Positions 33,320 through 54,827 of a stretch of 64,000 nt of DNA are shown here, one piece after another. How positions within the stretch are numbered: the stretch's first letter is position 1; each line of letters begins with the position of its first letter. A program made the translations under genes and the position numbers. Source of the stretch: Gammaproteobacteria bacterium (GTDB lineage Bacteria > Pseudomonadota > Gammaproteobacteria > Arenicellales > JAJDZL01); contig JAJEHQ010000011.1 in the NCBI GenBank assembly GCA_022823625.1, positions 132,077-196,076 on the forward strand, in the 5' to 3' direction. Under the pieces are notes generated by a model. The model saw nothing but the letters and a program-made list of their open reading frames with translations. It was not told the origin of the DNA and made no database searches.

Positions 33320-34378
33320 TCAATACGAGTCCCGTTCGAATTCTTCACCGGTGTTGTCCGATTCAACGCCGACCACTGCGAGACCTTCGCCGTGTTCAAC
33401 CAAGCCTCTATGACACCGCACGTAGGCTACACCGCCGATTGGAAATTCTATTCGGATGGGCGGTTCTTCAATATGGCTGATACTATGAATATAGCCAACC
33501 AGGTCGCCAGCTGAAACGCGATCACCGGGTGTAAAAGCGGGTTCAAACAAGCCGCGGTGTGTTGCATAAACGGTTTGATTTGCATCGACAATCTTGAAAA
33601 ATGTTGCCGGTTCTTTTCGCAGTTCAACTTCACCTGACAAAACTCCCAAGTGACGCAGACAGTTACGGATGCCTTGCTCTCCAAGCTTCATGGTTTCCGG
33701 AGAGACGTGGCCGGTACCGCCCAGTTCGGCCGCAATTGATGGGATTTTGTTACGAACGGCAGCACCATTCACACTGCGATCATCATTGAAAATTCCCATC
33801 ACCCAGACTAAGGGGCAACCAAATACATCTGCCAGTTCCATGATTATTGCCTGACGAGTTGGATCGTCATCATAGGTTGCCATCGAACAGGGAGAAAACC
33901 AGTAGGCTTTACCACCCGCGTGCAGGTCAATTGCAACATCGCAGACTGGCATCACCGCGCTTTCGACAAAGTGTGCGATGACCTGAGTTGGAGATCCGTT
34001 TGGGTCTCCGGGAAACGCTCGATTTAGATTGCCGTCATCAAGCGGTGACACTCTGGCCGAGGCATTCAAGGCCGGTGCATTGATTGCCGGAAAAATGATG
34101 ACTCGTCCCTGAATGTCGTCAACATTGGTTTCGCGAAGAAACTTGACAAGAGAAATGGGGCCTTCAAATTCATCGCCATGTACCCCGCCGGTCAGGAGGA
34201 TTGTTGGACCGGTTCCATTGATAATGACACCCGCAGGAATGGGTATGTAACCCAAAGGGGTCTGGTTGTCGGAGTACTTTAGGCGCAGGTCGCCGGATCG
34301 CTTGCCTGGAGAGGTAAAGTCGAGACTCGATTGAATTCGAGTTTTATTCCAATTGATGTCGGAATACTGTTTGCTCAT
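33320..34378 (-). CDS. Succinylglutamate desuccinylase/aspartoacylase-family zinc deacylase (DoeB-like)
   Basis: From the internal Met: MSKQYSDINWNK...PTILLTGGVHGDEFEGPISL (Zn-binding H..E) and IDLHAGG. The TTG-started upstream extension in the track is not supported by the family N-terminus. Confidence 0.75.
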   Translation of the reverse strand: MSKQYSDINWNKTRIQSSLDFTSPGKRSGDLRLKYSDNQTPLGYIPIPAGVIINGTGPTILLTGGVHGDEFEGPISLVKFLRETNVDDIQGRVIIFPAINAPALNASARVSPLDDGNLNRAFPGDPNGSPTQVIAHFVESAVMPVCDVAIDLHAGGKAYWFSPCSMATYDDDPTRQAIIMELADVFGCPLVWVMGIFNDDRSVNGAAVRNKIPSIAAELGGTGHVSPETMKLGEQGIRNCLRHLGVLSGEVELRKEPATFFKIVDANQTVYATHRGLFEPAFTPGDRVSAGDLVGYIHSISHIEEPPIRIEFPIGGVAYVRCHRGLVEHGEGLAVVGVESDNTGEEFERDSY

Positions 34379-34437
34379 GGAAATACCCTGAATTCTGCTT
34401 GTTGGTCCATACTCCTCAATCCAAATTTGGGAGTGAA

Positions 34438-35007
34438 TCAATAGTAGCCGATCACATCACCCTTGGTGGTCACGCCTAAACCATTGAGCAGACGGTTGAC
34501 GTAGCAGAAGTAACCGACTACCTGGTTTAATTCCAGGATTTCACCGTCATCACATCCGGCCTGAAATAGAGCCTCAATGTCTGATTCAAGCATAGAGTCA
34601 ACCGCGACTGTCAGCTTTTCCACGTAATTTAGCATTGCCAGTTCTTTATCTTGGAAGGCGCAGTTTGGTTGGCGGTTTTTCAAAGCTGAAATTATTTGCT
34701 CGTAGCGTACGTCGTCGTTCAGTAGTTTGCGCAGATTTGAACTGTGATGTGTAACGCTGTAATCACACTTGTTCAGAAGGCTGGTATAGGTTCCAGCGGT
34801 TTCAAGAAACCAGATTGGCAGTGAATTATCATTGCTGTGGAGTACGCTTCGATACAGTGAGACGTGACCATGCATGGTTTTTGGACGTAGACTGTGAATT
34901 CGCATCACGTTGTCCACTGTTCCGTGTGGCGTTCGAGTCGTTTCCAAAGCCTCTTTTGCTTCTCCCGTCGCCTCTTCGTCAGAGAGCATTTTGATCCAGG
35001 CAGTCAT
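34438..35007 (-). CDS. Carboxymuconolactone decarboxylase (AhpD-like) family, peroxidase-related-enzyme subgroup
   Basis: 189 aa. The N-terminus W.KMLSDEEATGEAKE and the core KCDYSVTHH fit a CMD-type CxxC/H motif with the second Cys replaced by Ser. Confidence 0.65.
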   Translation of the reverse strand: MTAWIKMLSDEEATGEAKEALETTRTPHGTVDNVMRIHSLRPKTMHGHVSLYRSVLHSNDNSLPIWFLETAGTYTSLLNKCDYSVTHHSSNLRKLLNDDVRYEQIISALKNRQPNCAFQDKELAMLNYVEKLTVAVDSMLESDIEALFQAGCDDGEILELNQVVGYFCYVNRLLNGLGVTTKGDVIGYY

Positions 35008-35015
35008 TTCATCAA

Positions 35016-35945
35016 CTAGTTTCGATATGCGAAGGATCGATTGAACCGGCCGCTGATATAAGCATCGCAGGTGATTGGTTCAAAATTTGCGGCTTCGCCA
35101 TTGTGAAGAATAGGATCAATGACGGTGTTGGAATCAGGGTCTACGAATACAACAACTGAATAACGCGCTTGGCCACCCTTGTTGACAACAAAATGTGGAA
35201 CCGAACGAAATCGACCATTCGACCAGCGTGACAGCAGGTCTCCGATGTTGGCAACAAATGTATTCGGAATCGGTTCTACTTCGTACCAGTTGCCATCGGC
35301 AGATTGGGCGTTTAGCCCTGGCCCTCCTTGCAAGAGCATGGACAAGCATCCGAAATCTGAGTGTGGCGAGACTCCATAACCATTGGAATTTTTTTCAGTC
35401 GCTGGGTAATAAATCAGTGATCCTCTGGAAGTTGGGCGATTGAAGTTTCGGGTGAAAAAAATTGGAGATTCATCCAGAGATACGGCTAGTGCACGAAGTA
35501 TCTTCCGGGAGCAATTGTGAACTTCATCAAAAAAGGTGTTAAGAACCGAGCGCATATCAGCGGGTTCATTCGGCCAGCGGTTTGGTGCGAGTAGTTGACT
35601 CTGGACTTCAGATGAAAGGTCATCGAGATCTTCGTCAATTCCCCAAATAAAGCTTTCTTTCTGGTCGGCGCTGCTGTAACCCTCCATGGTTGACTCCCCG
35701 ATTGACAAGAAACCGCGGTGGGTGTCGGACATTTCTGTTTCAGCCTTCTTTTCTTTAGGCAGCGAGAAAAATTGTTTGGCTGTTTCAAAAGTCGAACTGA
35801 TTAGATCGGTATCTACACCGTGTCCAGTGATGTAAAAGAATCCGTCAGTCTCAGATGCCGCGCGCAGTACTTTTCCGACAGATCTAAGCGCAGAATCAGA
35901 CTCATTCTGCAGCGGAGAGATGTCGATGACTGGAATTGAAGTCAT
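35016..35945 (-). CDS. 2OG-Fe(II) oxygenase (isopenicillin-N-synthase/ACC-oxidase-like)
   Basis: N-terminal IPVIDISPL, HSDFG (HxD), distal SVPHFV His, and RYS (2OG-binding RxS). Confidence 0.8.
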   Translation of the reverse strand: MTSIPVIDISPLQNESDSALRSVGKVLRAASETDGFFYITGHGVDTDLISSTFETAKQFFSLPKEKKAETEMSDTHRGFLSIGESTMEGYSSADQKESFIWGIDEDLDDLSSEVQSQLLAPNRWPNEPADMRSVLNTFFDEVHNCSRKILRALAVSLDESPIFFTRNFNRPTSRGSLIYYPATEKNSNGYGVSPHSDFGCLSMLLQGGPGLNAQSADGNWYEVEPIPNTFVANIGDLLSRWSNGRFRSVPHFVVNKGGQARYSVVVFVDPDSNTVIDPILHNGEAANFEPITCDAYISGRFNRSFAYRN

Positions 35946-42075: not shown

Positions 42076-43173
42076 ATGACCCCTGAACTGCGTCCCGGCT
42101 TAGAAAACATCAAGCCGCACATGGTTGCGGCGGACGATAAAGCACTGGCTAGAACTCGCATCAACATAGCCTCCAATGAAAGTGCATTTGGCCCGTGTGA
42201 TCTGGCGATAGCTGCTGCCACCGAAGCGATTCAAAGAATGGAACGATATGCTGATGGTGCGGAAGCCGTATTGACCGAACGCGTCGCTCATCATCATGCA
42301 CTCAGTCCTGACGGTGTTGTTTGTGGGAATGGTTCCGATGATTTGTTGGCGAGACTCGCTCGTGCATTTTTAAGACCGGGCGACGAATTGATCTGCAGTA
42401 TCAACGGATATCAGAAAATTCCAAATTATGCTTACGCTAATGATGCCGTTCCTGTTCGCGCGAACGATAGTGACTTTACGACGAATGTCGATGAAGTTTT
42501 GAGTTGTTTGTCGTCCAAAACTCGAATCGTCATGATTGCAAATCCTGACAATCCCTCTGGCACTTGGGTGAGTGGGTCGGAAGTCAGGCGACTGCATCAG
42601 AATCTGCCGTCCAGCGTGCTCCTGATTCTGGATTCTGCCTATCTCGAATATGTTGATGACGATGAATTTGGAGACCCGGCCTCTCTTGTTGAAGAAAATG
42701 AAAATGTTGTAATGACAAGAACATTTTCAAAGATTTATGGCCTTGCTGGACTGCGCTTGGGATGGATGTACGCACCGAAACGAATCACTGATGCAATTCG
42801 AAAAATTGGAATGACTTTTCCGATTTCGAATGTCGCGTTTGAATGCGCCAAAGCTGCATTGGCGGACCGTGAATACACGAAGAGTGTATTTGAACGCAAC
42901 TTGAACGGGCGACAGAAGTTCGCTGCCACTCTTGAGCGTTTGGGTGCCCGAGTACTTCCTTCCCAAACCAATTTTTTGTTGGCAACATTTCCACCAGATC
43001 TAGTAGCGGCATCCGATCTACACCGTGAGTTGTTAGCACAGGGAATTTTCACCCGTCGCCTGGCATCTGACGCGTTCTCTGACTGCATTCGATTTACGAT
43101 TGGAACACCTTCTCAGATGAAAGAAGTTTCGCACGTTCTTCAGGACCTGATCAAAGGGCCCGCCACCGCTTAA
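42076..43173 (+). CDS. PLP-dependent aminotransferase, class I/II, HisC-like
   Basis: IANPDNPSGTW and TFSKIYGLAGLRLGW (PLP-lysine motif), 365 aa. Confidence 0.8.
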   Translation: MTPELRPGLENIKPHMVAADDKALARTRINIASNESAFGPCDLAIAAATEAIQRMERYADGAEAVLTERVAHHHALSPDGVVCGNGSDDLLARLARAFLRPGDELICSINGYQKIPNYAYANDAVPVRANDSDFTTNVDEVLSCLSSKTRIVMIANPDNPSGTWVSGSEVRRLHQNLPSSVLLILDSAYLEYVDDDEFGDPASLVEENENVVMTRTFSKIYGLAGLRLGWMYAPKRITDAIRKIGMTFPISNVAFECAKAALADREYTKSVFERNLNGRQKFAATLERLGARVLPSQTNFLLATFPPDLVAASDLHRELLAQGIFTRRLASDAFSDCIRFTIGTPSQMKEVSHVLQDLIKGPATA

Positions 43174-43187
43174 ATAACGGGGACAAT

Positions 43188-43694
43188 ATGACGCTGCCAA
43201 TCAAAGGTGCATCGATTATCAAGGCATTCGAGGATGCCGGAATTCAGTCTGTTGTCGCGCTGCCGGATATCGTTACCTGCGATACAGTGCTCTGGCCACT
43301 GTCATCGAACCCCAACTTCATGTTTATTCCGGTCTGCAAGGAAGATGAGGGAGTTTCGATTTGTGCGAGCCTTTCTTACTGTGGTCAGCGCGCACTGCTT
43401 TTAATTCAGCATACCGGCTTTCTGGATTCGATCAATGCAATACGCGCGATTGCGGTGGAATACCAGCTGCCGGTTGTCATGGTTGTCGGACTGCAGGGTT
43501 CTGACCCCGATACGCATCCGAACCAGTCAAAAAGCATTGGAATTCGAGCGCTTGGGCCGATTTGCGATGCCTTGGAACTTCGTCATGCTTTTGTCAAGGA
43601 TGAGGAGAGTGCCATCTCGATTGTTGAGATGATTGAAGCCGCATACGAGAACTCCTCACCGTGCGCAATATTTGTACCTAATCCGCCAGTCTGA
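43188..43694 (+). CDS. TPP-dependent 2-oxoacid decarboxylase, alpha (PYR-domain) subunit; sulfopyruvate/phosphonopyruvate decarboxylase family (ComD-like)
   Basis: 168 aa. VALPDIV...PVCKEDEGVSICASLSYCGQRALLLIQHTGF has the catalytic-Glu PYR-domain pattern, and it is a separate polypeptide as in ComD. Confidence 0.7.
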   Translation: MTLPIKGASIIKAFEDAGIQSVVALPDIVTCDTVLWPLSSNPNFMFIPVCKEDEGVSICASLSYCGQRALLLIQHTGFLDSINAIRAIAVEYQLPVVMVVGLQGSDPDTHPNQSKSIGIRALGPICDALELRHAFVKDEESAISIVEMIEAAYENSSPCAIFVPNPPV

Positions 43695-43700
43695 TCCAAC

Positions 43701-44288
43701 ATGATGAAACGAGATCAAGCGCTACAGGCACTAGCCCGACACTATCAGGACGGCATTGCAGTTGCTGTCTATCAGACGGCGTTTGACTGGATGCACATCA
43801 GACCGCATGACCTGAACTATTTTTGCACTGGTGCGATGGGTCAGGCATCTTCGCACGGATTGGGGTTGGCGTTGGGCGCCCCGGATGAAAAAGTAATCGT
43901 ATTGGACGGAGACGGCAGTCTGCTGATGAATCTCGGGTCGCTGGTTACAGTTGCCAATATGGCACCGAGAAACTTTTTTCATTTTGTCAGCCAGAACAAC
44001 ATGTATGAAGTGAACGGAAAAATTCCGATTCCCGGAGCGGCATCCATCAATTTTGATCATATGGCGATTGCGGCGGGATACAGACACGCTTTTTCCTTCG
44101 ATGACATCGGTCAATTCAATTCAGAGATCAAGGGAATTTTGGAATTGGAAGGTCCGGTGCTTGTTTGCATGCATATCGAACCAGGAGATTTCTATCCACT
44201 CGATTACGTTACACTCCACAGTGAAGAGACCCGGGTAAAATTTCGAAACGCTTTGAAATCTCGGCTACAATCACCACTTCAGGAATGA
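43701..44288 (+). CDS. TPP-dependent 2-oxoacid decarboxylase, beta (PP-domain) subunit (ComE-like)
   Basis: GAMGQASSHGLGLALGAPDEKVIVLDGDGSLLMNLGSLVTV...SQNN contains the GDG-x(25)-NN TPP/Mg motif. 195 aa. Confidence 0.75.
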   Translation: MMKRDQALQALARHYQDGIAVAVYQTAFDWMHIRPHDLNYFCTGAMGQASSHGLGLALGAPDEKVIVLDGDGSLLMNLGSLVTVANMAPRNFFHFVSQNNMYEVNGKIPIPGAASINFDHMAIAAGYRHAFSFDDIGQFNSEIKGILELEGPVLVCMHIEPGDFYPLDYVTLHSEETRVKFRNALKSRLQSPLQE

Positions 44289-44381
44289 GCTGAATCTTTT
44301 GGTGCAAAAAGCATATAAACTTTCGATTCAAGCCGCGAAAAACAACTGATATCAAAAGCGGCGGCTAGCAAGACAATCGAA

Positions 44382-45227
44382 ATGGCAAATCAACATACAC
44401 AATCGGCGGCGGGGTATAGAGTCCGACCACCTACACCGAGTATTTTGTTTACTCGGAAATCTCCCCTTATTGATATTGGGCAACTGCTATTGCTCGGAGG
44501 ATTGACTACATGGGTCATCTATAAGGGTGCGAAAGCCATGCAATACAACTGGCAGTGGTATCGGGTCGATCAATTCATTTACCGGATTATTGACGGTGAA
44601 TTGATTTGGGGGGCGTTAATGAAGGGACTGATGGTCACCTTTGAGATTACTGCAGTCAGCATGGTGCTGTCGGTGGTGATCGGGTTAGTTACCGCTCTGC
44701 TTCGGATGTCGAATTCATTTTCAGGCAAACTGATTGCGAATATCTATCTTGAATCAATTCGTAATACTCCGCTGCTTGTTCAACTATTCCTGTTCTATTT
44801 CATTATTGCACCAATTGTTGGAATTGACCGGTTCTGGACCGGGGTGCTGTGTCTGAGTTTTTTTGAAGGCTCTTTTGCAGCAGAAATCATTCGCGCGGGT
44901 ATTCAATCAGTACCTCGCGGTCAGACTGAAGCGGCCAAGGCGATCGGCTTTAGTCGCATCAATATGTATCGGGATGTGATTCTTCCACAAGCGATACCAA
45001 TAATCCTTCCGCCAATGACTGGGTTGATCATCAATCTGATCAAGCACTCAGCAATCGTCAGCGTGATTGCAGTTGCAGATTTGACGACAGAAGGATTAAA
45101 CATTATTTCGGAGACCTTTATGGCATTCGAAATCTGGTTTACAGTTGCTGGGATTTATCTTGTCGTGACTGTATCACTCTCATTATTCGTTTCATGGATG
45201 GAGTCTAAAGCCATGCGTGGACGGTAA
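44382..45227 (+). CDS. Polar amino acid ABC transporter permease (HisM/HisQ-like)
   Basis: EAA-type loop GQTEAAKAIGFSRINMYRDVILPQA. Confidence 0.85.
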   Translation: MANQHTQSAAGYRVRPPTPSILFTRKSPLIDIGQLLLLGGLTTWVIYKGAKAMQYNWQWYRVDQFIYRIIDGELIWGALMKGLMVTFEITAVSMVLSVVIGLVTALLRMSNSFSGKLIANIYLESIRNTPLLVQLFLFYFIIAPIVGIDRFWTGVLCLSFFEGSFAAEIIRAGIQSVPRGQTEAAKAIGFSRINMYRDVILPQAIPIILPPMTGLIINLIKHSAIVSVIAVADLTTEGLNIISETFMAFEIWFTVAGIYLVVTVSLSLFVSWMESKAMRGR

Positions 45228-45257
45228 TGTCATTTATTTTTTAGGAGAAAGTTAAAT

Positions 45258-46082
45258 ATGAAACTAAGAAACCTATTCGTTACGATCTTTACAGCTTTTG
45301 CGCTTGCATTTTCAGCTATGGCCGGAGCGGCATCGCAGGAGTTGGCTGCTGAAAGTGTCTTGGAAGAGGTCAAAAAGCGCGGTTCTCTTCGAGTTGGCAT
45401 GTCCACCTTTGTACCATGGGCGATGCGAGACAAGAAAGGCGACTTGATTGGTTTTGAGATCGATGTTGCAACAAAGGTTGCTGAAGACATGGGTGTGGAA
45501 GTCGAATTTGTTCCCACTGCTTGGTCTGGAATCATTCCCGCTTTGATTGCTCGAAAGTTTGACGTAATTATTGGTGGTATGTCGATTACTCCAGGAAGAA
45601 ATCTGACTGTAAATTTCACAGCACCATATGCGCATTCTGGACAACAGATGGTCGCAAATATCGAGTTGGCAGAAGGATTTGCAGTCGAAGACTTTAACGC
45701 CTCAGACGTAACAATTGCATGTCGTCGCGGCGCGACACCCTGTAATGCAGCGCAAGAACTCTTTCCGAAGGCAAGCCTTGCTCGCTTCGATGATGATGCT
45801 CAGGCATTTCAGGAAGTTGTCAATGGTAATGCACATGCAATGATTTCATCGGCACCAAAGCCTCGCTTTTGGATGGGCAACTACCCAGGCAAGCTTTTCA
45901 TGCCAACTGATGAAAACCTGACGACGGGAGATGAAGCCTTTGCACTCCGTAAGGGAGACCCGGATGCGCTCAATTTCTTCAGCAACTGGATTGTCGTAAA
46001 CACGAGCAACGGTTGGCTGAAAGAACGCCATGATTTCTGGTTTAAGGCACAGACTTGGAAAGACCAGGTTGAAGAACAGTAA
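45258..46082 (+). CDS. Polar amino acid/opine-type periplasmic binding protein (family 3)
   Basis: Signal peptide MKLRNLFVTIFTAFALAFSAMAGA, plus GFEIDVA and FDVIIGGMSITPGR motifs. Confidence 0.85.
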   Translation: MKLRNLFVTIFTAFALAFSAMAGAASQELAAESVLEEVKKRGSLRVGMSTFVPWAMRDKKGDLIGFEIDVATKVAEDMGVEVEFVPTAWSGIIPALIARKFDVIIGGMSITPGRNLTVNFTAPYAHSGQQMVANIELAEGFAVEDFNASDVTIACRRGATPCNAAQELFPKASLARFDDDAQAFQEVVNGNAHAMISSAPKPRFWMGNYPGKLFMPTDENLTTGDEAFALRKGDPDALNFFSNWIVVNTSNGWLKERHDFWFKAQTWKDQVEEQ

Positions 46083-46100
46083 GGTTGTTTGATTTTTGTG

Positions 46101-46125
46101 TTTCCCCGGTAACTCGCCGGGGAAA
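46101..46125 (+). terminator. Intra-operon hairpin after the binding-protein gene (possible attenuator or partial terminator)
   Basis: TTTCCCCGG-taactcg-CCGGGGAAA, a perfect 9-bp GC-rich stem 19 nt after the stop. The downstream T-tract is weak (TACATAATTTCC). Confidence 0.45.
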
Positions 46126-46152
46126 TACATAATTTCCAATTGATTGTTTGAC

Positions 46153-47064
46153 ATGAATGAAGTTCGACTACGGCCTCCGGCTGAAAAAACCAGGCGAGTC
46201 ACCCTGCTCGATATCGCAATAATCAGCGTTGTCGTTGCAGTGTTGGTATACACCTATTACCGGGTGGAGCACGTCCTGGTCTATACCTGGGATTGGCCGC
46301 TGGTTTTCGAGTACGTCATTCGAGTTGACGAAATAACTGGTGAAATATTCCCCAATTTGTTTCTGAAGGGTGTCGCGATGACGCTGCGTCTCGCATTTTG
46401 GGGGACCATCATTGCCGCCGTAATCGGAATCGTCATGGGCCTGTGTCGGGTCAGTAACAACCTGTTCCTGAAACTTGGCAGCCGACTGTACGTGGAACTG
46501 ATCCGCAACATTCCGCCGGTTGTTTTCATTTTCGTCTTTTACTTCTTTATCAGCAGTCAAATTATTCCTCTGTTGGGACTGGATAGAATTGAGCAAACGT
46601 TTTCGCCGGGAACTCTTGCGGTAATGGAGGTGTTGTTCGGCCCCACTGATTTGTTCAACAACTTTCTTGCTGGGCTCATCTGTCTGGCGGTTTTTGAAGG
46701 TGCATACATCACTGAAATTGTGCGGGCAGGAATTCAATCCATTGACAAGGGCCAGTGGGAAGCCGCTCGTGCAATTGGACTTTCGCGCTTTCGTGTTCTA
46801 AGCGACATCATCATGCCACAGGCGTTGCGGACGATCCTGCCGCCATTGGCTGGACAATTTATTACGCTGGTAAAGGATTCGAGTATCGTGTCGTTGATCT
46901 CAGTTCAGGAATTGACTTTTCTTACTCAGGATGTTTCCAATACCACGACCCACTTTTTCGAAGCCTGGATGATTACCGCTGCCTTGTATTTCATGATGTG
47001 TTTTCCGTTAGCGGTATTGTTCCAGAGATTTGAGCGATTCGGCTTGGGTATTCAAAGAAACTAG
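46153..47064 (+). CDS. Polar amino acid ABC transporter permease with N-terminal extension
   Basis: EAA loop [28 protein letters not shown] at 46153, three codons inside the TTG-started track ORF. Confidence 0.85.
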
Positions 47065-47074
47065 GAGTGTTGAT

Positions 47075-47851
47075 ATGTCAGACCATACAGAAAATAAAAA
47101 TTCCGACCCGTCTCGCAAGGAACTTTTGAAGTTCGTTAACGTAGGCAAATGGTACGGTGATTTTTGTGCGCTATGGGACATCAACCTGACTGTTCATGCA
47201 GGTGAACGAGTGGTCGTTTGTGGCCCTTCCGGTTCTGGTAAATCAACGATGATACGGTGTGTCAACCAGCTTGAAACCTTTGAAGCTGGTGAAATTCTGA
47301 TTGACGGAGTTGTCGTCCAAACTGACCCGAAGTCTTTGCAGACCATTCGCCGTAAAGTCGGAATGGTGTTTCAGAACTTCAATCTATTTCCGCACATCAC
47401 AGTAATTCAGAACCTCATGTTGGGGCCAATCCGTAATTTAAAAGTATCAAAAAAAGAAGCGGAAGAAAGAGCGATGCGCTATTTGGAAAAGGTTCGCATT
47501 GCTGAGCAGGCTAAGAAATACCCCAGTCAACTGTCTGGTGGTCAGCAGCAGCGCGTTGCGATTGCACGGTCGTTATGTATGCACCCGGAGGTGATGCTGT
47601 TCGATGAACCGACATCTGCCCTTGACCCTGAAATGATTTCTGGCGTATTGGACATTATGGTGGAGTTGGCGGAAGGCGGAATGACGATGATGGTGGTCAC
47701 GCACGAGATGGGATTTGCCAAGCAGGTTGCAGATACGATGGTCTTCATGGACCATGGTGAAATTGTTGAAGTAGCGCCTCCAAATGAATTTTTCACCAAC
47801 CCCAAGAGCGAGCGAACCGAGCTTTTTCTCAGCCAGATATTGCAGCACTGA
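47075..47851 (+). CDS. Polar amino acid ABC transporter ATP-binding protein (HisP/GlnQ-like)
   Basis: [37 protein letters not shown] at 47063-47067 precedes the ATG at 47075. Confidence 0.9.
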
Positions 47852-47856
47852 CTGCT

Positions 47857-49119
47857 GTGCGCTCAGATCAACGTTATTCAATATTCACTCTGATTGGTGG
47901 CGCAGTTCGCGCTCACAGGCATTGGAAACCAGCTTGGCGAAATCCGCAGCCTAAGACGCACTACGATGTAGTCATCATCGGTGGCGGTGGGCATGGTCTC
48001 GCAACCGCCTATTATCTGGCGAAAAACCACGGTATCCACAATGTCGCTGTGGTCGAAAGAAACTGGATTGGTGGCGGTAACAGTGGTCGTAATACTGCAG
48101 TTGTTCGATCCAATTACCTTCGTGATATCAGCATTCAATTCTTTGACAAGTCGCTGCAGCTCTATGAAGGACTGAGTCGGGAACTCAACTACAACATCAT
48201 GCTCAGCCAGCGTAGTGAAGTCGATGTGCTGCTGACTACCGTGAGTATGCGCAACATGAGAAGACGCGCACTCAACATGAATCGATTGGGTATCGAGTTT
48301 CAGATGCTGACGCCCGATCAGGTGAGGGAGAGAATTCCGATTCTGGCTCCTATGGAAAACTGCCGCTTGCCCATTCTAGGTGGTTCAATTCAGGAACGTG
48401 CCGGTATTGCCAGGCATGATGCAATTGTATGGGGCTATGCAAGAGGTGCTGACTCTTACGGTGTCGACATTATTCAGAATGCCGAAGTTACGGCCATCCG
48501 CCGTGGCAATGATGGCGCAGTCGCTGAAATTGAGACAAGTCGAGGGCGAATAAAGGCCAACAAAATAGCGATTGCAACTGGTAATGAGAACGCTGCAGTG
48601 GCGAGTCTGGTCGATTTGAGACTCCCGCTTCGCTGCTATAACCTACAGGCATTCGTATCTGAACCGATCAAACCGGTTCTTGATGTTGTCGTCAATTGCC
48701 CTGATTTAGGGGTATATCTCAGCCATTCCGATAAAGGAGAGTTGGTGATTGGTGGAGCGACGGATGCGCAGCAGATTTCATTTCGAAAGGGTGGTAAGTT
48801 TCCAATGCTGGAAGACACCATTTCGGGATTACTTGAACTTTTTCCTTCTTTCCGACGGCTCAAGTTGATGCGGCAATGGGGCGGCGCCCTGGAATTTGCT
48901 CAGGATGGCAGTCCGATAGTTTCCTTAACTGATGTTAAAGGATTCTACGTCAGTGCCGGTTGGTGGGGTGGATTCAAGGCCATTCCTGCTGGTGGTATGA
49001 CATTTGCGCACTTAATCGCCCGCGATGAGCCACACCAGCTGGCGGCGGGATACGGGATGGAAAGATTCTCCACATTGAATTATCTGCTTGAAGGTGGGAC
49101 GACGGTTCCGACCGATTGA
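47857..49119 (+). CDS. soxB: Heterotetrameric sarcosine oxidase family, beta subunit
   Basis: RYSIF...HRHWKPAWRNPQPKTHYDVVIIGGGGHGLATAYYLAK is the canonical SoxB N-terminus. The GTG start lies 5 nt after the ATPase stop. Confidence 0.85.
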   Translation: MRSDQRYSIFTLIGGAVRAHRHWKPAWRNPQPKTHYDVVIIGGGGHGLATAYYLAKNHGIHNVAVVERNWIGGGNSGRNTAVVRSNYLRDISIQFFDKSLQLYEGLSRELNYNIMLSQRSEVDVLLTTVSMRNMRRRALNMNRLGIEFQMLTPDQVRERIPILAPMENCRLPILGGSIQERAGIARHDAIVWGYARGADSYGVDIIQNAEVTAIRRGNDGAVAEIETSRGRIKANKIAIATGNENAAVASLVDLRLPLRCYNLQAFVSEPIKPVLDVVVNCPDLGVYLSHSDKGELVIGGATDAQQISFRKGGKFPMLEDTISGLLELFPSFRRLKLMRQWGGALEFAQDGSPIVSLTDVKGFYVSAGWWGGFKAIPAGGMTFAHLIARDEPHQLAAGYGMERFSTLNYLLEGGTTVPTD

Positions 49120-49210
49120 GTGTTTTATGCTGTACTAACCGAATAGTGTTCACAAAATTGGATTCTGTCCGATCAAAATTATCCGATTCGCTGATAAGGA
49201 TAGCCATTCG

Positions 49211-49465
49211 ATGTTATTAATCCATTGTCCATGGTGTGGAGTACGCGCTGAGTCGGAGTTCAGGTGTACGGGTCAAGTGAAGCCGCCGCGCAGTGAGTTT
49301 GTACATAAAAGCGATGAAGCCTGGCTTGAATACCTCTATCAGGCGGACAATCGCCGCGGAATTTTAGAAGAATACTGGTGTCATGAAAAAGGATGTGGCC
49401 AGTGGTTTAAGCTTCGGCGCGATACCACAACGCATGAGATCATGGATGGGGATACGGACTCATGA
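49211..49465 (+). CDS. soxD: Sarcosine oxidase family, delta subunit
   Basis: MLLIHCPWCGVRAESEF... has Zn-ribbon-type Cys/His. 84 aa. Its stop overlaps the soxA start. Confidence 0.85.
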   Translation: MLLIHCPWCGVRAESEFRCTGQVKPPRSEFVHKSDEAWLEYLYQADNRRGILEEYWCHEKGCGQWFKLRRDTTTHEIMDGDTDS

Positions 49466-52431
49466 GTCGAGCAAATTCAAAAAGGCTCCATTTTGGCGGT
49501 TACATTGATCGAACGCAAAGCCTGAAATTTAAGTTCAATGGCAGAGACTATGTCGGATTTCAGGGCGACACACTCGCTTCGGCACTCATGGCAAACGGAG
49601 TTAACGTCCTTTCGAGAAGCTTCAAATATCACCGCCCGCGTGGAGTCCAAAATCGCGGGTATGCCGACGTTACCTCACTTGTACAGATTGCAGGGAAAAA
49701 TGAATCTCCCAATGTTCTTGCCAGCGTTCAGCCACTTTACGAAGGCCTCGAAGCGTTCAGTGTGAACTGCTGGCCGAGCGTCAGTTTCGACATTGGTTCG
49801 ATTTTCGGAGCGTTTTCCCCGATTCTTCCAGCGGGTTTTTACTACAAGACATTCATGTGGCCCAACTGGCATTTATTTGAGCCGCTGATCCGGCGTGCTG
49901 CCGGTTTCGGGAAAGCACCCAGTCAGGCGCCTGCTGGTCAATTCCTGAACCGGTTTGATTATTGCGATATTTTGGTGATCGGTGCTGGTCCTGCCGGACT
50001 TCTGGCGGCTTTGACCGCGGCGAAGTCCGGGGCACGGACTGTGATTATTGATGAAATGACTCAGCCCGGTGGCAGTTTGCTATACAGCAAGACAGAACTT
50101 GAGGGGCAGCTTGCAATCGATTGGATAGCCCGTACAGTTGATGAACTGAAAAGCATGGATCACGCAACCTGCCTTTGGAATTCAACGGCCTGGGGCTACC
50201 AGGAAGGGAACATGGTGTGCGTTTCGGAACGTGACCCGAAACCCGCAGAGTTGATTGGTCGAAATTGGAAAATTTGGGCGAAACAGGTCATACTGGCAAC
50301 GGGCGCAATCGAACGGCCAATCGTCTTTGAAAACAATGACGTGCCTGGTGTGATGCTTTGTTCTGCAGTGATGGAAGCGATTCAGACGTACGGAGTGGTT
50401 CCTGGGAAAAAGGCGGTACTGTTCACCAACAATAGCAGTGCTTACGACATTCTGCCGTATCTGCAAGTAGCAGGTATTGAACTGGCCGCCATTGTGGATA
50501 CGCGCAGTGATGTTGAATTGGATACTGTTATTGGGACGGATGACTCAAATGTCGAGGTTCTACAGGGAGCTTCTATCCAACTGGTGATACGCGCAGGTAG
50601 ACGAGTCAGGGGTGTTGTAGTCCATGCTCAGGACAGTTCCGGCAAAGAGAAAGTGGGCAAAATCGAATGTGACTTGGTCTGCGTTTCGGGTGGCTGGAAT
50701 CCCAGTGTTCATCTCTTCTCTCAATCGCGCGGGACTCTTCGCTATGATGACAATATTGCATCATTTGTTCCAGATCAGGCGATTCAGGCGACACTCTGCG
50801 CGGGTGCCATAACTGGCGAAATGTCGTTAGCAGGCAGTCTGAAATCTGCGGTGCAAATCGGGTCGAAGGCATTGTCAAGAATTGGGATTGAGGCGGCACC
50901 GATTTCGATTCCAGAGGTGACAAACGGCGATCACACTAACTATCAAGTTGATGCGTTCTGGAGTTCAACTGCTGGTCATAAGCGCGTCAAGGCGTTTGTC
51001 GATTTTGCAGGAGATGTGACCGTTTTCGATTTGAAACTCGCCATTCAGGAGGGATTCGATGAGATTGAGCACCTGAAACGCTACACAACCACAGGCATGG
51101 GACTCGATCAGGGAAAAACAGCCAATGTCAATGCGATCGGGATTATTGCCTTTCATCTGGATTGCCATCCATCAGAAGTTGGCACGACAACTTTTCGACC
51201 GCCCTACACACCAGTTGAATTTGGCTCGATTGCTGGAAGTCAAGCGGGTGATGTAGTATTGCCTTACCGCCATACACCGATGACGCATTGGCACAAAGAG
51301 TACGGTGCGGTGATGTACGAAGCAGGAGCCAGGTGGCGGCGTCCTGGTTATTACCTGAAGGAAGGTGAGTCCATGAATGAAGCGATCAATCGCGAGTGTT
51401 ATGCGGTGAGAAATCATGTTGGAATTTACGATGGCTCACCACTCGGCAAATTTATCATTCGGGGCAAGGATACTGAGAAACTACTCAATCTCATCTATAC
51501 AAACAGTTTTAACGGATTAAAACCGGGTCAGGGCAAATACGGGTTAATGCTCAATGAAGAGGGGCTGATTTTTGATGATGGTGTCACCTTTCGAATTGAT
51601 GATGATCAATACCTCTTGTCTTGTTCTACTGGCGGTGCACCAGCGGTAGAGCGTAAGGTTGATAAGCTGATTAATGTCGAGTGCCCTGAATTGAAAGTGA
51701 TCATCACTCCGGTAACCTCTCAGTGGGCGAACGCGACGGTCTGCGGACCTTTGGCAAGACAGATGCTTCAATCCACAGAATCAGACATCGATTGGTCACG
51801 AGAAGCCCTACCATTCATGCATGTCGTGGAAGGCATCATCGCCGGAATGCCAGTCAGGGTGTTTCGGGTCAGTTTCACTGGGGAGTTGAGTTTTGAGATC
51901 AACACACCTTCGAGGTACGGGCTCAAGCTTTGGAGGTATCTAATCGAAGTCGGGCAGAATTGGGATATCTGCCCAGTTGGGTCGGAAGCCAATCACGTCC
52001 TTCGAGTCGAAAAAGGATTTTTGTCTCTGGCTCATGAGGTTGACGGGACAGTCGATCCAATTGACTTGGGACACGGTTGGATCGTGAGTCGGAAAAAGAA
52101 AGACTTCATTGGCAAACGCTCAATGGAGATTCGTCGACAGAACCAGCCAGTTCGGCAGGAACTCGTTGGTTTACTGCCAAAAGACTCGAAGCAACTGATT
52201 TCGGAAGGAGCACCCATAGCACCAGCGAACAAACAGGAGTTGTCAGATGGGTTTGTTTCTGCTTGTGTATGGAGTGGGGTCTTGGAACGCACAATTGCGC
52301 TTGGAGTACTTACGGACGGGCGTTCCAGATTTGGCGAGACGGTACTTGCTTGGGAACAAGGTGAACCGCTGCCTCTAGAGGTCACACGCCCGATATTCTA
52401 TGATGCTGAGGGGATAAGGCTGAGGATGTGA
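49462..52431 (+). CDS. soxA: Sarcosine oxidase family, alpha subunit
   Basis: 989 aa. It has a dinucleotide-binding ILVIGAGPAGLLAALTAAKSG and a C-terminal GcvT-like folate-binding domain (HVGIYDGSPLGKF...). Confidence 0.85.
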   Translation: MSRANSKRLHFGGYIDRTQSLKFKFNGRDYVGFQGDTLASALMANGVNVLSRSFKYHRPRGVQNRGYADVTSLVQIAGKNESPNVLASVQPLYEGLEAFSVNCWPSVSFDIGSIFGAFSPILPAGFYYKTFMWPNWHLFEPLIRRAAGFGKAPSQAPAGQFLNRFDYCDILVIGAGPAGLLAALTAAKSGARTVIIDEMTQPGGSLLYSKTELEGQLAIDWIARTVDELKSMDHATCLWNSTAWGYQEGNMVCVSERDPKPAELIGRNWKIWAKQVILATGAIERPIVFENNDVPGVMLCSAVMEAIQTYGVVPGKKAVLFTNNSSAYDILPYLQVAGIELAAIVDTRSDVELDTVIGTDDSNVEVLQGASIQLVIRAGRRVRGVVVHAQDSSGKEKVGKIECDLVCVSGGWNPSVHLFSQSRGTLRYDDNIASFVPDQAIQATLCAGAITGEMSLAGSLKSAVQIGSKALSRIGIEAAPISIPEVTNGDHTNYQVDAFWSSTAGHKRVKAFVDFAGDVTVFDLKLAIQEGFDEIEHLKRYTTTGMGLDQGKTANVNAIGIIAFHLDCHPSEVGTTTFRPPYTPVEFGSIAGSQAGDVVLPYRHTPMTHWHKEYGAVMYEAGARWRRPGYYLKEGESMNEAINRECYAVRNHVGIYDGSPLGKFIIRGKDTEKLLNLIYTNSFNGLKPGQGKYGLMLNEEGLIFDDGVTFRIDDDQYLLSCSTGGAPAVERKVDKLINVECPELKVIITPVTSQWANATVCGPLARQMLQSTESDIDWSREALPFMHVVEGIIAGMPVRVFRVSFTGELSFEINTPSRYGLKLWRYLIEVGQNWDICPVGSEANHVLRVEKGFLSLAHEVDGTVDPIDLGHGWIVSRKKKDFIGKRSMEIRRQNQPVRQELVGLLPKDSKQLISEGAPIAPANKQELSDGFVSACVWSGVLERTIALGVLTDGRSRFGETVLAWEQGEPLPLEVTRPIFYDAEGIRLRM

Positions 52432-52952
52432 ACATGGGATACTCGGTGGAAATCACATCCATGGATCAAGAAGCCATGTTTGATGTTCAGTGCATCAGGC
52501 CGATTCTGGATGACTTTGTTGCGCGTTTCAGCCTGGAGGTATCCTCGGACACCGATGAATTTTTATCATCTGTAGAGTTTAATATTCTTAGGCTTGGACC
52601 AAGACGGGTGCTGATCCAGTCTTCACTTAGAGATGAGTATCAGATTGAATACAGGGCCGCGAGTTGCAATAGTGACCCGAAGAATCTGAGTGTCGTCAAT
52701 GTTTCAGATCTATATCTTGGAATTCAACTGGCCGGCACTGACGCGCTGGAAGTCCTGGCGCATGCAGTTCCACTCAATCTTCACGAGTTTGCAATCGGCG
52801 ATTCAACTTTAACTGCAGTATTTTCAATTGCAGGTATCGTAACGCGCACTGCTGAAGAATCGTACTCACTTTATATTGATCGAAGTTATTTTGACTATGT
52901 ATGGTACCGTCTCCATGTCTGTGGACTCAAGAATCTGAGCGACCACGGCTAA
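52428..52952 (+). CDS. soxG: Sarcosine oxidase family, gamma subunit
   Basis: 174 aa. The call rests on position (a 4-nt overlap with soxA) and size. The sequence itself is poorly diagnostic. Confidence 0.65.
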   Translation: MNMGYSVEITSMDQEAMFDVQCIRPILDDFVARFSLEVSSDTDEFLSSVEFNILRLGPRRVLIQSSLRDEYQIEYRAASCNSDPKNLSVVNVSDLYLGIQLAGTDALEVLAHAVPLNLHEFAIGDSTLTAVFSIAGIVTRTAEESYSLYIDRSYFDYVWYRLHVCGLKNLSDHG

Positions 52953-53006
52953 ATTCACTCCGTATTCGTATACAAATAACAGCAATCCTTCGATCGAGAT
53001 TTAAAA

Positions 53007-53687
53007 ATGGTTTTGACGATACTGTTTGATTTTGATGGGGTGCTGGTGGACTCTATCGAAATTTTTTCCGAAGCTGTCAATGTTGCCGGTCGAAAATTAA
53101 AGCAGCCTGTTGCGTTTGTACCGGACGACCTGCGCAATATCAAACGCATGTCTATTGCAGAGATTGTTGAAGCCGCAAATGTTGACCCAAGTCTTTCACA
53201 AGAGTTCGTAGTTGAAATTGATCGGGCACTTTTTGATCGATACGAGCAGATCCAGCTTTTCCCAGAAATTGCCAGGGTCGTTCAACAACTGAGAGAAGTC
53301 GCAAAACTTGGCATTGTTTCAGCAACCTCTGTAGCAGTACTTCAAAGAGTTTTGGAGCATCAAGGAATCAAGCAGCACTTCGATGAAATCGTCGGTGGAG
53401 ATGTCCCGGGTACCAAAGCGCAAAAAATTCAACGCATCATTCTAAAGAACGGGTCGGATCAATCGAAGTCCTGTATGATTGGCGATACCGTCAGTGACAT
53501 GGAACAGGGCAAGGCGGCAGGAGTCGTAACGATTGCGGTCAGTTGGGGTTGGCATGCGATCGAGTGGATACGAATAGTTCAGCCAGATTACGAAGCCCAT
53601 CAACCGCAGGATTTAATTGACATTACCAGGCAGCATTTGCTGCCAAATCATTTGACGCCAAACTCATTGAAACATATGGTGAATTGA
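53007..53687 (+). CDS. HAD-superfamily hydrolase (phosphoglycolate phosphatase/beta-PGM-like subfamily IA)
   Basis: Motif I LFDFDGVLVDS, motif II VSATS, motif IV GDTVSD. Confidence 0.8.
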   Translation: MVLTILFDFDGVLVDSIEIFSEAVNVAGRKLKQPVAFVPDDLRNIKRMSIAEIVEAANVDPSLSQEFVVEIDRALFDRYEQIQLFPEIARVVQQLREVAKLGIVSATSVAVLQRVLEHQGIKQHFDEIVGGDVPGTKAQKIQRIILKNGSDQSKSCMIGDTVSDMEQGKAAGVVTIAVSWGWHAIEWIRIVQPDYEAHQPQDLIDITRQHLLPNHLTPNSLKHMVN

Positions 53688-53693
53688 AAATCA

Positions 53694-54827
53694 ATGAAAG
53701 ACAACAAAACCTTACTCGCTCAGGCCAATCACTACATCAATCCGTCAAGCGGTGGCATCGTTCCACCAATTGACCCTTCAGTTACATTCGCTCGCGATGA
53801 TGATCTGGAATTAATTGGAAACTATGTTTATGGACGCTACTCCAATCCTACCTATGAGCAGCTTGAAGGGATCATCTGTGAATTGGAGGGCGGGGAGAAA
53901 GCGTTGTTCTTTGCATCAGGTCTTGCAGCCATCGCTGCAGTGTTTGAGACCGTTAACATGGGTGAGCATATCGTAGCGCCGAAAGTGATGTATCACGGCA
54001 CGGTCGACTGGTTAAAGCGGATATCCGAAAAACGCAATATTGAGTTGACTTTGTTCGATCCCTCTGACCCCACCAATTTAACTCGCTCACTGATTCCTGG
54101 AAAAACAGCGATCGTCTGGATTGAGTCACCCATTAACCCGTCGTGGGATGTGATTGATATTGAAAAAGCAGCCGATGATACTCATGCAGCCGGTGCAATT
54201 TTGGGTGTCGATGGTACTGCAGCGTCTCCCATCTCGACACAGGCATTGAATCTAGGCGCTGATATCGTATTTCATTCTGCAACTAAATATCTGAATGGGC
54301 ACAGCGACCTTAATGCTGGGGTACTCGTGACTGGAGCGGTAAACAAGTGCTGGGAAGAAATCGTCGACGTTCGTCGACTGACAGGCGGCATATTGGGTTC
54401 ATTTGAGGCTTGGCTACTGTTGCGTGGCATGCGGACTCTATCGATCCGATGGCAACGTAGTTGCGAAAGTGCCATGCAAATTGCCGAGTTTCTGGAGGAA
54501 CATCCTGCAGTTGAAAGGGTGCTGTATCCAGGGTTACCGAGCCATCCCTCACACGAAATAGCCAAGCGTCAGATGACCAACGGATTTGGTGGGATGATGT
54601 CGCTGCAGATGAAAAGGGGTCAGGAAGCAGCGCGTGAATTCGTAACGCGGGCCAAGGTTTTTGTCAGAGCGACATCACTGGGTGGAGTGGAAAGTCTGAT
54701 TGAGCATCGAAGGACTGTTGAAGGACCACACAGTGAAGTACCAGTTAACCTGATTCGACTTTCAGTTGGAATAGAAAGCGTAGAGGATCTTATTGAAGAC
54801 TTGCGTCAGGCACTAGAAGGGCTGTGA
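53694..54827 (+). CDS. Cys/Met-metabolism PLP-dependent enzyme (cystathionine gamma-synthase/gamma-lyase/beta-lyase family)
   Basis: HSATKYLNGHSD (PLP-lysine signature) and SLGGVESL. 377 aa. Confidence 0.85.
   Translation: MKDNKTLLAQANHYINPSSGGIVPPIDPSVTFARDDDLELIGNYVYGRYSNPTYEQLEGIICELEGGEKALFFASGLAAIAAVFETVNMGEHIVAPKVMYHGTVDWLKRISEKRNIELTLFDPSDPTNLTRSLIPGKTAIVWIESPINPSWDVIDIEKAADDTHAAGAILGVDGTAASPISTQALNLGADIVFHSATKYLNGHSDLNAGVLVTGAVNKCWEEIVDVRRLTGGILGSFEAWLLLRGMRTLSIRWQRSCESAMQIAEFLEEHPAVERVLYPGLPSHPSHEIAKRQMTNGFGGMMSLQMKRGQEAAREFVTRAKVFVRATSLGGVESLIEHRRTVEGPHSEVPVNLIRLSVGIESVEDLIEDLRQALEGL

Follow-up and report, generated by a model that had tools for sequence, protein, structure and literature searches.

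Sarcosine-oxidase-like genes linked to a family-3 importer and an aminotransferase/decarboxylase trio: a candidate N-demethylation module for an amino acid other than sarcosine

The 64,000-nucleotide stretch analyzed in the current work (the window; positions 132,077 to 196,076 of the forward strand of contig JAJEHQ010000011.1, assembly GCA_022823625.1, from a gammaproteobacterium of the Arenicellales) contains four genes resembling soxB, soxD, soxA and soxG, located directly behind the genes of a family-3 ATP-binding cassette (ABC) importer and downstream of three genes specifying a HisC-like aminotransferase and a split thiamine pyrophosphate (TPP) decarboxylase. This arrangement raises the question of which compound the encoded enzyme would oxidize, and whether that compound is sarcosine at all. 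The four sox genes are assigned below to a subfamily of their own, made up of orthologues, within the heterotetrameric sarcosine-oxidase/N-methylglutamate-dehydrogenase family, and the reading that we favor, with a probability of roughly 0.6, is that their products would perform a Sox-like N-demethylation of an N-methyl amino acid other than sarcosine, the product of which would feed the aminotransferase and the decarboxylase. Confidence in any particular substrate is low.

In a maximum-likelihood tree of SoxB proteins, 25 importer-linked copies, which come from two proteobacterial classes, formed a single clade with a Shimodaira-Hasegawa-like approximate likelihood ratio (SH-aLRT) support of 100, with members from Arenicellales, another gammaproteobacterium, Leisingera, Ruegeria, Sedimentitalea, SAR116 and Marinimicrococcus, and this clade was separate from the glyA-linked copy (see below) and from every other paralogue of the same genomes. 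Two exceptions were observed, one being a copy of another clade situated near an importer (locus L073) and the other a long-branch sister (locus L075). When five genomes, each with three to seven paralogues, were searched in their entirety, the copy most similar to the window SoxB was in every case the one linked to the importer. The clade is invariant at 14 positions that differ in all other paralogues (signature RILCPDQRKLAWGT, corresponding to residues 89, 93, 171, 281-283, 306, 310, 314, 345, 348, 370, 379 and 416 of the window SoxB), including three gains of a basic residue (R89, R310 and K314), and this signature is strictly kept at an overall SoxB identity of about 50-58%. Alignment with the solved beta subunit places R89 five residues past the conserved RSNY arginine and W370 within the GW..GGFK stretch, two stretches that presumably correspond to the active-site motifs around Arg52 and Lys348 in the monomeric enzyme, monomeric sarcosine oxidase. 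The full signature was also retrieved from plasmids of the cultured strains Paracoccus seriniphilus DSM 14827 and Ruegeria conchae M340. Taken together, members of the clade were obtained from Arenicellales, Roseobacteraceae, SAR116, Geminicoccaceae and Paracoccus. An earlier note on this DNA, made from the sequence alone, had proposed that the Sox enzyme is functionally tied to the importer, and the finding that the importer-linked copies form one clade bears this out.

The second line of evidence concerns the aminotransferase/decarboxylase trio, to which the same note had connected the Sox enzyme. Fifty importer-carrying genomes were searched in their entirety for the beta piece of the split decarboxylase and for clade-type SoxB (verified by means of the signature), and the window genome was added to give a total of 51. 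SoxB of the clade or of its sister type was present in 27 of 29 genomes with the beta piece as compared to 3 of 22 without it (Fisher p = 6e-9), and following collapse to about 26 lineages the corresponding fractions were 10/12 and 3/14 (p = 0.005). Many genomes that lack sox genes within the 20-kb importer loci have a clade copy on the contig that carries the decarboxylase, 4-17 kb away from it, while in sponge-derived Paracoccaceae both are present at a distance of more than 600 kb from each other. This genome-wide co-occurrence, which holds even at such distances, supports the connection and indicates that the trio and the Sox clade represent one functional unit. It also fits the order of events suggested in the earlier note (dealkylation, then transamination, then decarboxylation), although the step order as such is deduced rather than observed.

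Based on open reading frames and on Pfam and NCBIfam matches, the genes in question belong to a plus-strand run of 13 genes (42076-54827) separated by short gaps; the final line below gives an operon outside this run that is referred to later.

42076..43173, plus strand: HisC-like class I/II aminotransferase, first gene of the run (Pfam Aminotran_1_2; NCBIfam hisC, 253.5 bits, below the cut-off of 276.55)
43188..43694, plus strand: alpha-like piece of the split TPP decarboxylase (NCBIfam sulfopyruvate decarboxylase alpha, 79.4 bits, below the cut-off of 147.95)
43701..44288, plus strand: beta-like piece of the split TPP decarboxylase (Pfam TPP_enzyme_C)
44382..45227, plus strand: ABC permease 1 (Pfam BPD_transp_1; NCBIfam HEQRo_perm_3TM, above cut-off)
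45258..46082, plus strand: periplasmic family-3 solute-binding protein (Pfam SBP_bac_3)
46144..47064, plus strand: ABC permease 2 (Pfam BPD_transp_1)
47075..47851 (start revised), plus strand: ABC ATPase (Pfam ABC_tran)
47857..49119, plus strand: SoxB-like flavoprotein subunit of the importer-linked clade (TIGR01373, 531.7 bits, cut-off 529.45)
49211..49465, plus strand: SoxD-like zinc subunit (Pfam SoxD)
49462..52431, plus strand: SoxA-like subunit of 989 amino acids (Fer2_4, Rossmann, SO_alpha_A3 and GcvT-type folate domains)
52428..52952, plus strand: SoxG-like subunit, strongly diverged (Pfam SoxG, 32.7 bits)
53007..53687, plus strand: HAD-IA hydrolase (Pfam HAD_2)
53694..54827, plus strand: Cys/Met-metabolism pyridoxal phosphate (PLP) enzyme, last gene of the run (Pfam Cys_Met_Meta_PP, 375 bits)
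33320..35945, minus strand: operon for a DoeB-like deacylase, an AhpD-like protein and a 2-oxoglutarate (2OG)-Fe(II) oxygenase (matching neighbor clusters c8, c13 and c12, respectively)

The gene order previously described for this locus (permease, binding protein, permease, ATPase and soxB-D-A-G on one strand), the GTG start codon of soxB at 47857, 5 nt past the ATPase stop codon, and the 4-nt overlaps of soxD with soxA and of soxA with soxG were all found to be exact. The ATPase reading frame as listed begins with a TTG at 47030, yet the ATG at 47075 is the likelier start, being preceded at 7 nt by an AGGAG sequence, positioned 10 nt past the stop codon of permease 2 and giving rise to a protein of 258 amino acids, which is the median length of its orthologues. 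Between 41800 and 58400, promoter- and terminator-like sites did not exceed the chance level obtained with shuffled sequence; the only intergenic terminator-like site in this interval (54894-54907) is located just past the PLP-enzyme gene, and no convincing terminator was detected inside the run. Gene spacing suggests that the run may be co-transcribed. Since the arrangement recurs in many genomes from two proteobacterial classes, it is not explained by chance adjacency.

With respect to family membership, the encoded subunits display the complete domain architecture of TIGR01372 to TIGR01375 (DAO, SoxD, GCV_T/SO_alpha_A3/Fer2_4 and SoxG) in the B-D-A-G order. Of the four, only SoxB passes its NCBIfam cut-off, and barely so, SoxA (1123.9 bits against TIGR01372, cut-off 1164), SoxD (93.2 versus 116.5 bits) and SoxG (54.9 bits against TIGR01375, cut-off 143.95) being below theirs; outside its closest relatives, SoxG is 23-50% identical to its orthologues. 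H187 of SoxB aligns with the FMN histidine His173 of the beta subunit of PDB entry 2GAG, and C6, C9 and the following His and Cys residues of SoxD align with the zinc ligands (Cys3His site) of its delta subunit, residues which presumably serve covalent attachment of flavin mononucleotide (FMN) and zinc binding, respectively. The folate domain of SoxA is recognized by GCV_T (203 bits) and GCV_T_C (40 bits). Nineteen other GcvT-domain proteins of this genome share 14 columns with a conservation of at least 90%, and the window SoxA retains every one of them, 12 of these columns being identical in all ten clade sequences compared. Retention of the FMN, zinc and folate residues argues for folate-coupled removal of a one-carbon (N-methyl) unit as opposed to opine cleavage, the removed group thus being a putative methyl.

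The same set of four subunits in the same gene order, together with the covalent-FMN histidine, the delta zinc site and the folate T-protein domain, is found in the heterotetrameric sarcosine oxidase TSOX (SoxBDAG) of Corynebacterium sp. U-96 (PDB 1VRQ/1X31) and Stenotrophomonas maltophilia (PDB 2GAG), and the window enzyme most likely works as TSOX does, by oxidizing an N-methyl secondary amine and transferring the one-carbon unit to tetrahydrofolate. It differs from TSOX in that it belongs to a clade of its own, set apart by 14 fixed differences that include three Arg/Lys gains, in that its beta subunit matches the solved one with 381 bits, and in that its genes are linked to the importer and the aminotransferase/decarboxylase trio rather than to glyA. 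The 3.18-Mb genome contains four complete SoxBDAG sets and about 15 genes for dimethylglycine dehydrogenase (DMGDH)-like proteins. One of the sets, on another contig (C43) than the window set, follows glyA and faces a methylene-tetrahydrofolate reductase gene, which is the classical sarcosine context; its SoxB matches the solved TSOX beta subunit with 619 bits, that of a set on contig C35 with 497 bits. The window and glyA-linked copies reside in separate clades, the latter being far closer to solved TSOX, which indicates that the window genes do not encode the housekeeping sarcosine oxidase or a true TSOX orthologue, and which is in agreement with the previous suggestion that free sarcosine is a less likely substrate of this paralogue.

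A further set of the same genome, on contig C38 (L093:7965-15963), consists of soxGADB on the minus strand directly preceded by a gene for an unsplit TPP enzyme of 536 amino acids; it faces a divergently oriented gene whose product, a HisC-like aminotransferase, shares 41% identity with that of the window, a PhyH-family dioxygenase gene being located alongside, and it adjoins genes of tetrahydromethanopterin-dependent one-carbon metabolism (Mpt_N, MCH and ATP-grasp). The logic of a demethylase combined with an aminotransferase and a TPP decarboxylase is consequently present twice in this genome, in two non-homologous versions that use different decarboxylases. The alpha piece of the window decarboxylase occurs as a single copy in the genome, and DNA of the window region is found in sponge metagenomes.

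As regards the trio itself, wherever both decarboxylase genes occur in related loci, the HisC-like aminotransferase is present as well. The best NCBIfam matches of the beta piece are phosphonopyruvate decarboxylase (109.5 bits, cut-off 312.5) and the beta subunit of sulfopyruvate decarboxylase (102.1 bits, cut-off 221.5), and both decarboxylase pieces are so far below the cut-offs that neither can be assigned to the ComDE or Ppd equivalogs. A biosynthetic role of aminotransferase and decarboxylase was considered and rejected, as the 97%-complete genome lacks a phosphoenolpyruvate (PEP) mutase, and the decarboxylase is for this reason not regarded as biosynthetic.

The importer is of the polar amino acid transport (PAAT)/HisJQMP type, as judged by its SBP_bac_3 protein, two BPD_transp_1 permeases scoring above the TIGR01726 cut-off and ABC_tran ATPase. 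Conservation of the binding protein is unusually high, orthologues with an identity of 60-99% being present at more than 520 genomic places; the 80 best importer loci among them were used for neighborhood and cluster counts, 51 of these having sufficient flanking sequence. The 80 loci are from Arenicellales, SAR116, Granulosicoccaceae, Pelagibius and Acidiferrobacter-like bacteria, from Roseobacteraceae and Paracoccaceae (Leisingera sp. ANG-M1, Ruegeria and Sedimentitalea nanhaiensis DSM 24252), and further from Poriferihabitaceae, Geminicoccales and Bryobacterales. In the 51 well-flanked loci, sox genes were located beside the importer in 25 cases, the decarboxylase in 23, both in 19 and neither in 22. 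Between classes, the binding protein is about 77% identical as compared to about 53% for SoxB.

Among solved structures, the binding protein is closest to 9E2B, an L-tryptophan-bound protein from Desulfonauticus sp. (316 bits, 52-58% identity), followed by AncCDT-1 (arginine) and Ws0279 (lysine), while SAR11_1068, a weak sulfobetaine binder, is more distant; the group comprising the latter three was described by Clifton et al. (bioRxiv 10.1101/157495). A literature search on 9E2B, the enzyme trio and Desulfonauticus returned nothing relevant. Similarity to the opine-binding proteins NocT and OccJ amounts to about 60 bits and is limited to residues 49-139 of the N-terminal lobe, so that the protein is not placed among the opine binders and the opine-type importer of the earlier note is not upheld, the nearest solved relative being a binder of L-tryptophan. 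When mapped on AncCDT-1 and 9E2B, the arginine that contacts the alpha-carboxylate is kept as R114 and shared with 9E2B, whereas R157, K201, R203, H126, Q129 and Q130 occupy, in the window protein and its orthologues, positions that are hydrophobic in the tryptophan binder. With hydrophobic residues replaced by Arg, Lys, His and Gln, a ligand more polar or anionic than tryptophan is expected, and these residues, in combination with the basic gains in SoxB, suggest a substrate with an anionic or very polar side chain. Loss of Asp170 of AncCDT-1 had been considered as an indication of an N-substituted ligand; this idea was dropped, as 9E2B likewise lacks this Asp and binds L-tryptophan, the loss thus being no proof of N-substitution. 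An AlphaFold model of the binding protein, made with 12 close orthologues (predicted local distance difference test score, pLDDT, of 57, a poor value), provided a Foldseek match to 9E2B only and no pocket geometry. C155 and C162, which flank an invariant RRG motif, are invariant in 12 of 12 aligned orthologues and may form a disulfide next to the ligand site.

Several gene families recur around the importer. The window operon at 33320-35945 matches clusters c8, c13 and c12 with 44%, 54% and 38% identity, and these clusters (deacylase, AhpD-like protein and 2OG oxygenase) are represented in 20, 12 and 12 of the 80 loci, respectively. Other recurrent neighbors are Rieske oxygenases, a fatty-acid-desaturase-like oxygenase, RidA, LysR regulators and a set composed of an amidase, an AllG-like protein and two copies of an uncharacterized 210-amino-acid protein; a NicX-like neighbor represents a language-model lead only, and a second neighbor queried in this way returned just 'hypothetical'. 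In several related loci an aldehyde dehydrogenase of betaine- or amino-aldehyde-like type is adjacent. This repertoire of neighbors suggests, by analogy with homarine, that the N-methyl amino acid may often arise intracellularly from a larger precursor bearing methyl or acyl groups. A Rieske oxygenase is likewise part of the glycine betaine cascade (GbcAB-DgcAB-SoxBDAG), and its presence upstream of or near the importer and the Sox clade in many related loci suggests, by this likeness, stepwise demethylation of a methylated amino compound. The window system would differ from that cascade in its end product, which is proposed not to be glycine, the skeleton being further transaminated and TPP-decarboxylated, and it differs in its importer, which is of the family-3 polar-amino-acid type and not of the OpuA/ProU or BCCT type.

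A number of additional observations were made in these neighborhoods. On the plasmid p449297 of P. seriniphilus DSM 14827 (183927-208673, locus L120) and on the plasmid of R. conchae M340 (locus L121), the importer and clade-type sox genes occur together, in the company of purU and genes for a glutathione S-transferase, a Rieske oxygenase, an AhpD-like protein, a ferredoxin, RidA and a DoeB-like deacylase. In sponge Paracoccaceae (L151:2850-10636 and L153:9460-16967), a conserved block for a Rieske oxygenase, the two 210-amino-acid proteins, an AllG-like protein (DUF1116) and an amidase is oriented divergently from the trio, with the importer elsewhere; in the window genome this block is found on another contig (C14:69046-86298). 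A small HD-domain protein is encoded after soxG or the importer ATPase gene in eight loci (for example L057:12538-13224, L017:17749-18351 and L025:17921-18478), the only solved structures matched in profile comparisons being those of PhnZ (E = 1e-6) and TmpB (E = 3e-4), both of them oxygenases that cleave C-P bonds; the protein keeps the pattern H...HD...H...H...D, the copies of L023 and L026 having a 23-residue gap over two of the histidines, and its homologue in the window genome is unlinked (C15:85356-85931) and next to a class IV aminotransferase gene. In five loci from sponge Paracoccaceae (L039, L040, L046, L047 and L061), the importer is preceded by genes of the Asp/Glu-racemase and isocitrate/isopropylmalate-dehydrogenase families and by a RidA gene, the other strand carrying genes for a DAO-family flavoprotein, an unsplit TPP enzyme and a tripartite ATP-independent periplasmic (TRAP) transporter; this set may provide another way of processing the compound in question or one related to it. 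In four of four SAR116 loci (L035, L041, L043 and L044), genes for urocanase and histidine ammonia-lyase are convergent to the importer operon, a synteny that may be coincidental or may hint at an imidazole-type substrate.

At the downstream end of the window run, the HAD and PLP-enzyme genes are present only in the six closest Arenicellales relatives among the 51 well-flanked loci and are therefore viewed as lineage-specific additions; the HAD protein, with 24.5 bits against the phosphonatase family TIGR01422, is not a phosphonatase. A methyltransferase-HNH gene (54947-56731) is situated between the PLP-enzyme gene and an Fe-alcohol dehydrogenase gene (56866-58179), paralogues of these two flanking genes (31% and 47% identity, respectively) directly adjoin each other on contig C2 of the genome (C2:70773-73372), for which reason the window pair may have been split by an insertion. 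The acyl-CoA dehydrogenase encoded upstream of the run (40753-41910) was considered as a glutaryl-CoA dehydrogenase and rejected, being of a generic short-chain type.

Four other explanations have to be weighed against an N-demethylase for an amino acid other than sarcosine. The window enzyme may simply be an ordinary sarcosine oxidase or N-methylglutamate dehydrogenase (NMGDH) in a methylated-amine island, the importer supplying sarcosine, dimethylglycine or a similar compound; its full SoxBDAG architecture with a SoxB just above the family cut-off, its conserved catalytic residues, the abundance of demethylases in the genome (the four Sox sets and about 15 DMGDH-like genes mentioned above) and the position of purU beside clade-type sox genes in P. 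seriniphilus are all compatible with this. We nevertheless regard it as unlikely, given that the same genome possesses a glyA-linked copy much nearer to solved TSOX, that the clade signature is strictly kept at about 50-58% identity, and that the tight genome-wide coupling to an aminotransferase and a 2-oxo-acid decarboxylase would serve no purpose if glycine or glutamate were released. As regards the NMGDH version, homarine was found to be degraded via N-methylglutamate and a Sox-like four-subunit NMGDH (Ferrer-Gonzalez et al. 2026, PMC13236597), enzymes of this kind being routinely labeled sarcosine oxidase by mistake. This enzyme, MgdABCD, acts on an N-methyl acidic amino acid derived from a marine methylated metabolite; it is the closest functional analogy to the role proposed here and provides a precedent for it. 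In the SoxB tree, which was constructed without verified NMGDH references such as SPO1585-1588, the probable roseobacter NMGDH group, whose genes are located 8-25 kb from a short glutamate-synthase-like (Glu_synthase) gene, represents a different clade than the window SoxB; moreover, no gmaS/mgs, hom or short Glu_synthase genes are located near the window set, and glutamate needs no dedicated aminotransferase and TPP decarboxylase, so that the window enzyme is probably not an NMGDH.

The family matches of the decarboxylase direct attention to sulfonates and phosphonates. Cysteate or an N-methyl derivative thereof could be converted by transamination to sulfopyruvate and by the ComDE-like enzyme to sulfoacetaldehyde, which Xsc would then cleave, a route suggested by the sulfopyruvate decarboxylase alpha match of the alpha piece, by the apparently cationic binding-protein pocket, by an Xsc of 934 bits in the window genome and by the presence of Xsc in 24 of 28 genomes with the decarboxylase, the four exceptions being one genome of 1.8 Mb, one from a single cell and two multi-contig metagenome-assembled genomes. 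Xsc is, however, equally common without the decarboxylase (17/22; p = 0.48) and thus does not discriminate, it is never near the cluster where both positions are listed, both decarboxylase pieces are far below the ComDE cut-offs, and the adjacent aldehyde dehydrogenases resemble betaine- or amino-aldehyde types; to our knowledge, moreover, no natural N-methylcysteate has been described, and this route is considered quite improbable. Phosphonoalanine or its N-methyl form, which would be taken up, demethylated by Sox, transaminated to phosphonopyruvate and decarboxylated by the Ppd-like split enzyme to phosphonoacetaldehyde, with the phosphonatase PhnX, or PhnY and the phosphonoacetate hydrolase PhnA, completing the pathway, fared less well still and is held to be distinctly improbable. 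PhnX and PhnA were perfectly complementary in the first five genomes, an association that vanished when 50 were considered (PhnX or PhnA in 21/28 genomes with the decarboxylase versus 15/22 without; p = 0.75), and several sponge Paracoccaceae, including four single-chromosome assemblies according to record title, contain the decarboxylase and neither PhnX nor PhnA. What speaks for a phosphonate is that phosphonopyruvate decarboxylase is the best family match of the beta piece, that the PhnZ/TmpB-like HD protein of the eight loci is often near a 2OG oxygenase, that the genome has PhnX and no PEP mutase, and that the binding-protein pocket is predicted to be rich in Arg and Lys; yet the decarboxylase is far below the Ppd cut-off, the window HAD protein is no phosphonatase, and the HD match spans about 55 residues, with its homologue in this genome being unlinked. 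The co-occurrence tests on 50 genomes thus gave no support to either phosphonate or sulfonate end-steps, and the phosphonate idea in particular is weakened. Least probable of all, and by our estimate very improbable, is an opine-type oxidase served by an opine importer for strombine, alanopine or tauropine from a sponge host. The window enzyme is unlike an opine oxidase in having four subunits, among which a full-length alpha of 989 amino acids with intact GCV_T folate domains, the NocT/OccJ likeness (about 60 bits, N-terminal lobe) contrasts with 316 bits to 9E2B, and purU adjoins the clade genes in Paracoccus. The OoxAB and NoxAB opine oxidases consist of two subunits without delta or gamma, and we know of no opine oxidase with a folate domain. 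It is true that opine systems are among those combining a family-3 binding protein with two permeases, that the SoxB family includes opine oxidase subunits, and that marine invertebrates are established producers of such opines.

Several points weigh against the N-demethylase reading. The importer is present without sox or decarboxylase genes in 22 of the 51 well-flanked loci, from which it follows that it is not strictly dedicated to this pathway, contrary to what the earlier note had assumed, and the solved protein nearest to its binding protein has an ordinary amino acid, L-tryptophan, as its ligand. The pocket argument, for its part, depends on mapping of sequences only. Three genomes have the Sox clade without the decarboxylase; the genomes used for co-occurrence are related to each other, and many are metagenome-assembled genomes. 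In addition, the SoxB tree was calculated without verified TSOX and NMGDH references, and the position of the window SoxB above its NCBIfam cut-off leaves room for sarcosine activity.

Under the N-demethylase reading, the family-3 ABC system would import a polar compound, being either an N-methyl alpha-amino acid or a methylated precursor, which elsewhere may be trimmed by the neighboring Rieske and 2OG oxygenases, the DoeB-like deacylase and the amidase. The Sox-like enzyme would then oxidize the N-methyl C-N bond at its covalent-FMN beta subunit, and the alpha subunit would pass the one-carbon unit to tetrahydrofolate. The primary amino acid thus liberated, which is probably neither glycine nor glutamate and probably has an anionic or strongly polar side chain, would be transaminated by the HisC-like enzyme, after which the split TPP enzyme would decarboxylate the 2-oxo acid to an aldehyde, in a step order that is again a deduction. 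The same logic of aminotransferase, TPP decarboxylase and, in several loci, aldehyde dehydrogenase is encountered in the arginine transaminase route (AruH, AruI and KauB) and in Ehrlich-type pathways, from which the window system differs by its split ComDE/Ppd-like decarboxylase and by an N-demethylase that would come first. The previous proposal of an imported N-substituted polar amino acid is accordingly retained in part: the coupling of Sox, importer and trio stands, while the opine reading and the dedicated importer do not. A search of the searchable library for a cluster of importer, sox genes and trio found no published description, which is consistent with the earlier statement that the arrangement is not a described pathway.

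On a broader and more tentative view, which we hold to be doubtful at present, the window would represent the core of a widespread, undescribed marine route for a methylated nitrogen metabolite of hosts or algae. Such a metabolite would enter via the importer, and optional Rieske, 2OG, NicX-like, amidase and deacylase steps would convert it to an N-methyl acidic amino acid; a third branch of the Sox/Mgd family, being neither sarcosine oxidase nor NMGDH, would demethylate this product, and the HisC-like aminotransferase and a new catabolic branch of split ComDE/Ppd enzymes would finish the carbon skeleton. If true, this would constitute a parallel to the homarine to N-methylglutamate route of 2026, and it is this third functional branch, acting in a modular marine pathway, that we rate as new. 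In the sea, methylated nitrogen compounds serve as a major currency exchanged among hosts, algae and bacteria, and the routes of their breakdown have begun to emerge only recently, that of homarine in 2026 and the N-methyl-aminoethylphosphonate oxidases reportedly in 2023. Carriers of the module comprise sponge symbionts (Arenicellales, Poriferihabitaceae and Paracoccaceae), Roseobacteraceae, SAR116, Granulosicoccaceae and others. The current labels 'sarcosine oxidase', 'histidinol-phosphate aminotransferase' and 'sulfopyruvate decarboxylase' would mislead metabolic models of these bacteria. As cultured carriers exist, the question is directly testable, and identification of the substrate would reveal a new nutrient flux and would define both a third functional type within the Sox/Mgd family and a catabolic type of split TPP decarboxylase.

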